A stretch of DNA of 64,000 nt from Escherichia phage Eryne. The first letter of the stretch is position 1. The number at the start of each line of letters is the position of its first letter. Where the stretch lies: sequence record PQ529420; one strand, given 5' to 3'. The notes beneath the pieces were generated by a model. The model was not told where the DNA came from. It saw nothing but the letters and a program-made list of their open reading frames with translations, and did no database searches. Made by a program: the position numbers and the translations under genes. Shown here piece by piece: positions 4,577 to 5,170 of this stretch.

Positions 4577-5170
4577 TTAAATTTTAAATTCTTCACTGTT
4601 AAATGAATCCAGTGTACGTACTTCTGGTTCTTTGGGAATGAAAACGTCTTTTACAAAGCGGAACATAGGGAAACGTTCTGCCATTTTACGGACGTGTGCT
4701 TCTTTACCTGTGTATCGGTGATTAATAGTGCAAATATTAGTCTTCAATGCAAATTCAAAATCTGGATGATATACATAGTTTTGACCATCCCAGTAACACA
4801 AGCAGATAGCTACATCAAAGTTCCATACGATTTCACTGCGTACACCTTCTTCCATGATCATAAAGTTAAACTTAAGGTCTTTATAGTATGCTTCAAATAC
4901 CCATTTCAAATGTGGTAGTTCGGCATAAGTGTGTTCTGTTTGCTTAGTAAGTTGTTTAACATTACGTGCACCAACACCCAACATCAAAAATTTCTCTACT
5001 AATACGAGTGTATTGTGGTTAGGCATACGCAAGTAAATGTCAATATCTTGCGCAGGTTTCTCTAATCGCCAGTCACGTACAGCGCCGCCAGCTACAATTG
5101 CAAACGGATCTACCAGTTGGCACATACGTAATACTTCTAAAGCTCGTACTTTTTGATCTTCAATATTCAT
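4577..5170 (-). CDS. pol-beta superfamily nucleotidyltransferase (CCA-adding-enzyme-like head domain)
   Basis: 197 aa; GGAVRD...DIDIY signature of polymerase-beta nucleotidyltransferases. Confidence 0.55.
   Translation of the reverse strand: MNIEDQKVRALEVLRMCQLVDPFAIVAGGAVRDWRLEKPAQDIDIYLRMPNHNTLVLVEKFLMLGVGARNVKQLTKQTEHTYAELPHLKWVFEAYYKDLKFNFMIMEEGVRSEIVWNFDVAICLCYWDGQNYVYHPDFEFALKTNICTINHRYTGKEAHVRKMAERFPMFRFVKDVFIPKEPEVRTLDSFNSEEFKI

Follow-up and report, generated by a model that had tools for sequence, protein, structure and literature searches.

Escherichia phage Eryne encodes, on the minus strand of its replication module, a small nucleotidyltransferase which, from profile comparisons, appears to correspond most closely to the catalytic core of Gad2, an anti-defence protein of a Bacillus phage, in free-standing form. 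The gene lies in a stretch of 64,000 nucleotides from this phage (sequence record PQ529420), referred to below as the window, and specifies a protein of 197 amino acids, referred to as the NTase. It is very probable that the NTase shares ancestry with the catalytic core at the N-terminus of Gad2, and by analogy a role in counter-defence would be plausible. That the protein is a nucleotidyltransferase is already recorded, since its homologue in phage phi92, gp158, carries this name in RefSeq, and Pfam by implication already places it in Gad2. Some related records instead label the homologue 'putative tRNA nucleotidyl transferase/poly(A) polymerase'.

The window comes from the roughly 147-kb genome of an E. 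coli myophage of the Stephanstirmvirinae, a phi92-like Justusliebigvirus. Over the 5 kb around the NTase gene, identity is 98.9% with phage VivaForever and 98.7% with phi92. An earlier, sequence-only reading of this DNA had picked out the open reading frame (ORF) at 4577-5170 as a nucleotidyltransferase with GGAVRD and DID motifs, and this is confirmed by the ORF list and by a match to the 'nucleotidyltransferase' family PHROG 1614 (E 2.6e-34, covering residues 7-193). The ORF begins with ATG, and the end coordinate takes in the stop codon.

Relationship of the NTase to Gad2

Gad2 (Gabija anti-defence 2) of Bacillus phage SPbetaL7 is a protein of 400 amino acids with a predicted nucleotidyltransferase domain. 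Deletion of gad2 renders SPbetaL7 fully sensitive to Gabija, while co-expression of a Brevibacillus homologue blocks Gabija; the SPbetaL7 protein is toxic on expression (bioRxiv 10.1101/2023.05.01.538930). Few other anti-defence proteins are predicted to have enzymatic activity.

The exact protein encoded in the window has a precomputed match to the Pfam family PF26128 'Gad2' (E<=1e-5), a membership that the sequence-only reading had missed. The match recurs on a cluster representative 99% identical to the NTase and on about half of the NTase family. The gad2 gene was retrieved from OQ921347.1 (109563-110765, annotated 'Gad2', protein WIT28108.1), and of the 120 Gad2 homologues listed, the 119 that are full-length all carry PF26128, while the remaining one, a fragment of 226 amino acids, does not. 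Aligned with hhalign, the NTase family profile matches SPbetaL7 Gad2 with a probability of 87% (E 4e-6, 133 columns), pairing residues 11-162 with Gad2 16-164, and a profile of 39 Gad2 family sequences with a probability of 92.4% (E 5e-7, about 113 columns). Reciprocal hidden Markov model (HMM) searches between the NTase family and Gad2 matched 119/120 and 243/261 sequences. The two are also cross-linked in PHROG, where Gad2 leads to families 4400 and 1614 and the NTase to 1614 and 4400.

In an AlphaFold2 model of Gad2 (predicted local distance difference test score, pLDDT, 81), the secondary-structure elements follow one another as in the NTase, up to and including the beta-hairpin that follows the head; beyond the hairpin lie helices and a C-terminal beta-rich domain. 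Both proteins have GG, DxD and an amide at the third-carboxylate site (an invariant Gln88 in Gad2, Gln or Asn in the NTase family), and both have the F118...C123 element, F138 and the Y153/K162 pair, which hhalign places at Gad2 Y155/K164. Both are confined to phages or prophages. They differ in motif A, which reads GGAITS in Gad2 and GGAPRDW in the NTase family (GGAVRDW in the window), the latter being closer to CCA-adding enzymes. They differ also in length, the helical region and C-terminal beta domain being peculiar to the 400-residue Gad2, and in setting: in temperate phages of Bacillota, Gad2 belongs to an anti-defence locus, whereas the NTase belongs to the replication module of lytic phages of Gram-negative bacteria.

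The fold of the NTase is that of a DNA polymerase beta (Pol-beta)/class-II-type head, and its GG and DxD centre is intact. The AlphaFold2 model, built on an alignment of 60 sequences, has a mean pLDDT of 90.1 and a predicted template modelling (TM) score of 0.83, and shows the alpha-beta-alpha-beta-alpha-beta fold of the Pol-beta superfamily with its hG[GS] and [DE]h[DE]h motifs. In Foldseek searches of the PDB, the top matches are class II CCA-adding, CC-adding and A-adding enzymes together with E. coli poly(A) polymerase I (E about 1e-5 to 1e-3, probability 1.0), with TM scores of 0.41-0.58 normalised by the query and 0.20-0.32 normalised by the targets (342-517 amino acids), the NTase covering at most about 0.3 of the class II CCA target structures. 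Among predicted viral structures (BFVD), many proteins of 170-220 amino acids have the whole NTase fold, with TM scores of up to 0.8; they include ORF223 of Vibrio phage ICP1, 'nucleotidyltransferases' of Autographiviridae and some giant-virus proteins. The sequence-only reading had taken the protein for a nucleotidyltransferase reduced to the head domain, and was correct in this: the neck, body and tail of class II enzymes are missing. It had named the fold and the catalytic aspartates as the points to be checked; the fold is found in the predicted structure, and both aspartates, D42 and D44, are 100% conserved.

Conservation was assessed over 261 aligned relatives. Besides the two aspartates, G28, G29 and W34 are present in all of them; A27, A30, R32, Y82 and K162 are conserved in at least 96%, and Q6, D21, P22, D33, A40, G67 and F118 in at least 90%. 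The position of the third carboxylate, equated with D115 of Gp22 of Klebsiella phage fHe-Kpn01 by spacing and hhalign, is probably that of residue 102, and is occupied by Gln in 87%, Asn in 11% and Asp in 1% of the family. Of the sequences, 72% have an acidic residue at the position of E93, on the strand before, and E93 might stand in for the third acidic residue. The idea that a 'flexible loop' has simply been deleted from the NTase was not sustained, as the interval from DxD to F118 is 74 residues, compared with 68 in E. coli CCA.

The family is large. A word-indexed homologue search returned only 2 proteins; a profile was then built from phage tblastn matches, and this phage-homologue profile retrieved 778 proteins from a collection of 5.8 billion sequences. 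An exhaustive HMM search with the family profile gave 2798 cluster representatives at E<=1e-3, nearly all of 175-230 amino acids. Together with the PHROG 1614 match, the invariant residues and the confident AlphaFold2 model, this puts the NTase far outside the reach of chance. The family looks purely viral: the 120 relatives listed lie on contigs of up to 199 kb, and a scan of one genome per species across 185,579 species with the narrow pattern [LIV]AGGAPRDW found 9 loci only, all in metagenome bins.

The catalytic core of Gad2 very probably exists as a free-standing protein of about 200 amino acids in thousands of phage lineages, usually in the replication module; among its carriers are the well-studied E. 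coli phages phi92, phAPEC8 and the Justusliebigvirus isolates of the BASEL collection, and also Vibrio phage ICP1. A core of this size offers a far more tractable system for substrate discovery, and its DxD-plus-amide active site and linkage to the replisome provide concrete handles on Gad2-type enzymes. ICP1 isolates carry just a 137-residue N-terminal head fragment of the family (ORF223, 3959..4372), where several records annotate two ORFs; it may be a head-only version that works, or else a gene in decay. At the other extreme, the metagenomic relatives P0129, P0126 and P0125 have N-terminal extensions of 90-210 amino acids made up of a repeat of some 70 amino acids (PHROG 17589), present once or twice. 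No Pfam domain was found in the extensions of these and other fused relatives (P0243 among them), which might be substrate-targeting modules. P0129, at 400 amino acids, has the length of Gad2, but it was rejected as a Gad2 on account of its N-terminal extension and the lack of Bacillus phage matches.

Other small nucleotidyltransferases provide further points of comparison. Gp22 of fHe-Kpn01 (a Drulisvirus) resembles the NTase in its PHROG 1614 membership (1.3e-39), in size (182-197 amino acids for the two) and in being encoded directly downstream of a family A DNA polymerase gene. Unlike the NTase, it keeps an acidic third residue (EIDVLF), and hhalign relates it to the NTase family with a probability of only 56%. 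Against CCA-adding enzymes it scores far higher than the NTase (HHpred 99.8% for Gp22), and it is toxic in E. coli (PMC7291057). The 'tRNA nucleotidyltransferases' of Autographiviridae are placed with Gp22 among the small PHROG 1614 phage enzymes; one was sought in the record of phage KP34, where none is annotated, and fHe-Kpn01 served as the comparator instead. NP_344798.1 of Streptococcus pneumoniae (PDB 2la3), described as a 'CCA-adding enzyme head domain' protein, is likewise a stand-alone single domain, of 191 amino acids, but it is bacterial and shares 9% sequence identity with the NTase.

Comparison with enzymes that add CCA and with poly(A) polymerases

Class II enzymes combine five motifs of the catalytic core with a head-neck-body-tail architecture, and the RRD signature of their motif B serves in ribose recognition (PMC2910056). 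In motif D, EDxxR acts as the template for the incoming nucleotide (CTP or ATP), and neither its D nor its R tolerates replacement (PMC11784652). The NTase has motif A, GGxVRD followed by DxD, in common with class II enzymes (PDB 1miv, 3aql, 5hc9), and its head is followed by a beta-hairpin, helix, strand and helix, probably in the same order as in their motif C-D region. It differs from them in the lack of RRD, EDxxR, the poly(A) polymerase signature and the neck, body and tail that bind tRNA (197 amino acids compared with about 370-520), and in having Asn or Gln in place of the third acidic residue.

The signature of enzymes adding CCA and of poly(A) polymerases seen by the sequence-only reading stands as far as motif A, the sole class II motif found, and no further. 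HMM alignments to CCA enzymes cover motif A and nothing else. The Pfam profile PF01743 PolyA_pol scores 19.1 bits, below its gathering cut-off of 23, over residues 26-81 only, and the NCBIfam CCA equivalogs NF009814 and TIGR03671 score 15 and 13.9 bits against cut-offs of 290 and 281. Regular-expression scans found no motif B RRD in the NTase and a match in 1 of 250 relatives; motif D, [ED]DxxR, is likewise absent from the NTase and occurs at scattered positions in 18 of the 250. E. coli CCA, used as the control, gave RRD at 88-90 and EDPLR at 130. The poly(A) polymerase signature [LIV][LIV]G[RK][RK]Fx[LIV]h[HQL][LIV] is present in none of 261 sequences, the query included. The label 'tRNA nucleotidyltransferase/poly(A) polymerase' given in some phage records fails every membership test but motif A and can be corrected. 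Searches of PDB sequences with the protein and with the profile were set aside as too weak for function, as the CCA and poly(A) polymerase alignments amount to the 40 residues of motif A; alignment of the family with full-length E. coli CCA by hhalign was also confined to motif A, at 5% probability.

The tRNA genes give no reason to expect such an activity. In the complete sister genome MG065645.1, there are 15 tRNA genes clustered within 3 kb, and all 15 encode the 3' CCA, so that de novo CCA synthesis is not needed. The tRNA genes of the E. coli host likewise encode 3' CCA. A Vibrio phage of the Zobellviridae (46.9 kb) carries a member of the NTase family and no tRNA genes. The notion that phage tRNAs need CCA addition was rejected on these two grounds. 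MG065645.1 is an UNVERIFIED record entitled 'Campylobacter phage A145'; it is a Justusliebigvirus whose NTase is 98.5% identical to that of the window, and the Campylobacter host label is probably wrong.

The NTase very probably does not work as a CCA-adding enzyme. The sequence-only reading had suggested that it could repair tRNA 3' ends damaged by host nucleases, and such a function, whether the restoration of damaged CCA ends or the maturation of phage tRNAs, can draw on a motif A almost identical to that of CCA-adding enzymes, on the best structural matches being CCA- and CC/A-adding enzymes, on the 15 tRNA genes of phi92-like phages and on the annotation of some homologues. It is nevertheless very improbable. 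Motifs B and D and any tRNA-binding domain are missing, the PolyA_pol and equivalog scores lie below their cut-offs, CCA is encoded in all 15 phage tRNA genes, one family member is at home in a phage without tRNA genes, and the host has its own cca gene. Repair of damaged host tRNA ends is a conceivable activity of the NTase, but nothing in the data supports it. One family member, on metagenomic phage contigs of up to 199 kb, has its gene next to an IS605 OrfB/TnpB-like gene and some 2.7 kb upstream of one for an RtcB RNA ligase; RtcB is the sole RNA-repair-type neighbour met, and it did not recur in a survey of neighbours across 48 lineages.

A possible role in counter-defence and its alternatives

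The survey took 80 IMG/VR loci, which form 48 NTase clusters at 70% identity, and considered genes within four ORFs of the NTase. The recurrent neighbours are DnaG-DnaB-type primase-helicases (16 loci), family A polymerases (14) and FEN-type 5'-3' exonucleases (6), along with the homing-endonuclease-like HNH (6) and CapR (4) proteins. At least one replisome gene (primase-helicase, PolA or FEN) is present in 26 of the 48 lineages; replisome genes and homing endonucleases apart, a search for a conserved partner gene across all 48 gave none. Within the Stephanstirmvirinae the gene order is conserved as polymerase, (small ORFs), NTase, gp157-like and SSB-like, the last a putative single-stranded DNA-binding protein (SSB). 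The NTase is the fastest-evolving gene of this block: it is 37% identical to its counterpart in phAPEC8 and 49% to that in Klebsiella phage KP2025. In the same comparisons the polymerase is 79% and 86-92% identical, and the two genes downstream of the NTase 56-60%. This faster divergence is read as the signature of an arms race.

In the mechanism proposed here, a stand-alone phage enzyme, composed of a class-II-type Pol-beta catalytic head and a short alpha/beta tail, would bind a ribo- or deoxyribonucleoside triphosphate (NTP or dNTP) with Mg2+ and move the nucleotidyl group onto a hydroxyl acceptor. The analogy with Gad2 suggests that this transfer would neutralise, in the course of phage replication, a Gabija-type host defence that targets DNA, Gabija consisting of a nuclease (GajA) and a helicase (GajB) that sense DNA ends. 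The favoured acceptor would be a nucleic-acid 3' end, because the close structural relatives all extend the 3' ends of polynucleotides and the gene travels with those for polymerase, primase-helicase and FEN; the alternative would be nucleotidylation of a defence protein. Taken as a whole, the proposal that the NTase transfers a nucleotidyl group and thereby blunts Gabija-type defence, as Gad2 would, is a tentative one, to which somewhat less than an even chance is given.

Several points weigh against this proposal. The mechanism of Gad2 is unsolved (PMC12904381) and was still open as of 2026, so that to say the NTase works like Gad2 carries no chemistry yet. Anti-Gabija activity has been shown only for Gad2 proteins of about 400 amino acids from Bacillota phages, and Gad2 residues 165-400 are without a counterpart in the NTase; these C-terminal residues, about 230 in number, may carry the specificity. 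The similarity is also remote, with HMM-sequence scores between Gad2 and the NTase of 14-25 bits and a BLASTP alignment of Gad2 to the window protein restricted to motif A (E 6e-5). In the window NTase, the third acidic residue (h[DE]h) of Pol-beta-fold enzymes is replaced by N102, and robust catalysis is thus not guaranteed. Finally, the gene is present in every record matching the region; virtually all Stephanstirmvirinae keep it, and in an unchanging position within the replication module, a pattern closer to that of a core nucleic-acid metabolism gene than of an accessory anti-defence gene.

The last point leads to the main rival, according to which the NTase is a 3'-end tailing enzyme of replication or transcription with no role in defence, making untemplated additions to DNA or primers in T7-type replication, or tailing host RNA for decay in the manner of a poly(A) polymerase. 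Its closest folds are indeed those of template-independent polymerases of RNA 3' ends; its gene lies immediately downstream of the family A polymerase gene in the Stephanstirmvirinae, as does that of the fHe-Kpn01 enzyme; and more than half of the lineages surveyed have replisome neighbours. The toxicity of both Gp22 (PMC7291057) and SPbetaL7 Gad2 on expression is what uncontrolled tailing would cause, and the absence of the ribose-discriminating RRD may leave the use of dNTPs open. Against this, the NTase has no recognisable nucleic-acid-binding domain, and it diverges fast relative to the replisome genes, which is unusual in a housekeeping replication factor. To our knowledge, model T7-type systems need no 3'-end tailing activity. 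This rival is considered unlikely as a whole, and it overlaps with the counter-defence proposal if tailing is itself the anti-defence act. A broader conjecture, distinctly unlikely at present, is that the Gad2 core (180-220 residues) is a widespread accessory of T7-type phage replisomes whose unusual active site, two carboxylates plus an amide (DxD with Gln/Asn), extends the 3' ends of phage DNA or primers, hiding replication intermediates from end-sensing nucleases such as Gabija. If this were true, an enzymatic and substrate-directed form of anti-defence would be common to lytic phages of Gram-negative bacteria and Bacillus prophages, and the mode of action of Gad2 would be revealed as well. 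Should the link to counter-defence prove wrong, the NTase would remain an enzyme that is widespread, associated with the replisome and as yet unexplained.

Two further alternatives turn on the active site. With the polynucleotide-binding domains gone and a small active-site cleft left, the NTase could act on a protein or small molecule or make a signalling or decoy nucleotide, and Gln or Asn at the third-carboxylate site may hint at a chemistry other than activation of a 3'-OH. The sequence-only reading had offered a signalling nucleotide synthase as its second choice, and this survives only within the present alternative, which is quite improbable: the NTase matches no PADLOC model and has no conserved adjacent partner such as a HEPN, effector or receptor gene. 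It shows neither the features of cGAS/DncV-like enzymes (CD-NTases), namely the fold with a C-terminal helical lobe and an associated effector, nor those of MNT/HEPN and AbiEii/MenT systems, a GSxxxG-type motif and an adjacent HEPN or antitoxin gene. The same replacement of the third acidic residue (N102 in the window, Gln in most of the family and invariantly in Gad2), and the retention of just the head fragment in ICP1 phages, could instead indicate a catalytically weakened pseudo-enzyme that binds nucleotides or nucleic acids and exerts its effect through sequestration or the binding of a host factor. This is highly unlikely, since G28, G29, D42 and D44 are absolutely, and R32 and D33 near-absolutely, conserved across hundreds of divergent sequences, which argues for retained chemistry; moreover, Asn or Gln is still able to ligate Mg2+.

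Features of the gene and its surroundings

Coordinates of the NTase gene, its motifs and its neighbours in the window

Feature	Coordinates	Strand	Basis or remark
NTase ORF, 197 amino acids, Gad2-like minimal class-II-type nucleotidyltransferase, phi92 gp158 homologue	4577..5170	-	ORF list, PHROG, AlphaFold2, Foldseek, PF26128, hhalign
NTase ribosome-binding site AGGAG, 5 nt 5' of ATG	5176..5180	-	Sequence; phi92 annotates the same site
GGAVRD, NTase residues 28-33, first half of motif A (hG[GS] turn)	5072..5089	-	Family consensus GGAPRDW
DID, NTase residues 42-44, the two catalytic aspartates	5039..5047	-	100% conserved
N102, probable site of the third acidic residue in Pol-beta-fold enzymes	4865..4867	-	Alignment to D115 of fHe-Kpn01 Gp22 by spacing
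FDVAIC, NTase residues 118-123, family-specific F...C element at the site of class II motif B (RRDFTxN)	4802..4819	-	Without RRD
Conserved C-terminal segment, NTase residues 153-168 (Y153, K162, F167-P168)	4667..4714	-	Predicted helix 158-166
Family A DNA polymerase, directly upstream of the NTase	5308..7887	-	Pfam DNA_pol_A
phi92 gp157-like ORF, 132 amino acids, between the NTase and SSB-like genes	4135..4533	-	PHROG 16560
gp156-like putative SSB, 315 amino acids, with DFDDDIPF	3171..4118	-	Annotation in three related records
Near-consensus sigma-70 promoter-like site, TTGACA-18-TATTAT, extended -10 TG, 11/12 matches	4544..4573	-	Directly past the NTase stop, ahead of the gp157-like gene
Weak sigma-70-like promoter match, TTCATA-18-TAGAAT, with perfect palindrome AGATGTT-TG-AACATCT in the spacer	5202..5231	-	

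The sequence-only reading had placed the NTase between an SSB and a DNA polymerase. The polymerase is indeed directly upstream; on the other side, the gp157-like ORF intervenes before the SSB-like gene, for which no Pfam support as an SSB was obtained. Its identity as an SSB is plausible, given the annotation in related records and a DFDDDIPF tip typical of bacterial SSB. The promoter-like site just past the NTase stop codon suggests that the NTase closes one transcription unit and that the gp157-like, SSB-like and methylase genes open another. Upstream of the NTase, the weaker promoter match at 5202..5231 is a possible promoter or operator of the gene itself, as judged from its letters, and the palindrome in its spacer may be the operator. 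In the same intergenic region (5171..5307, minus strand), a hairpin, GGAACAA-N16-TTGTTCC, followed by a T-run lies just past the polymerase stop codon and may be a terminator.

Two paralogous glycosyltransferase-like ORFs, at 10438..11382 (314 amino acids) and 11394..12407 (337 amino acids) on the minus strand, lie beside the primase-helicase gene; Pfam Glyco_trans_1_2 matches only the former, and weakly. They would act on DNA or on a surface glycan. A link between the NTase and DNA hypermodification (glycosylated 5-hydroxycytosine, in view of these neighbouring glycosyltransferases) was checked and found no support.

The polymerase gene of the window is uninterrupted, at 2580 nt, whereas the phi92 polymerase coding sequence (CDS) is 3315 nt. 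Phages phi92, UAB_1 and cardinal have an insertion of about 735 bp within the matched region, consistent with a location in the polymerase gene. KP2025 has its polymerase divided between two CDSs, and an ORF with an AP2 domain (homing-endonuclease-like) lies between polymerase and NTase. The polymerase locus thus looks like a hotspot for mobile insertions.

The putative SSB varies at its C-terminus. In phAPEC8, KP2025 and phiWec188 the SSB-like protein ends exactly in DFD(D/E)DIPF. In the window and in phi92 the DFDDDIPF tip is internal, being followed by 15 more residues (APIGLQYGRNFLHCF), and a tip buried in this way might alter the recruitment of host SSB-interacting proteins.

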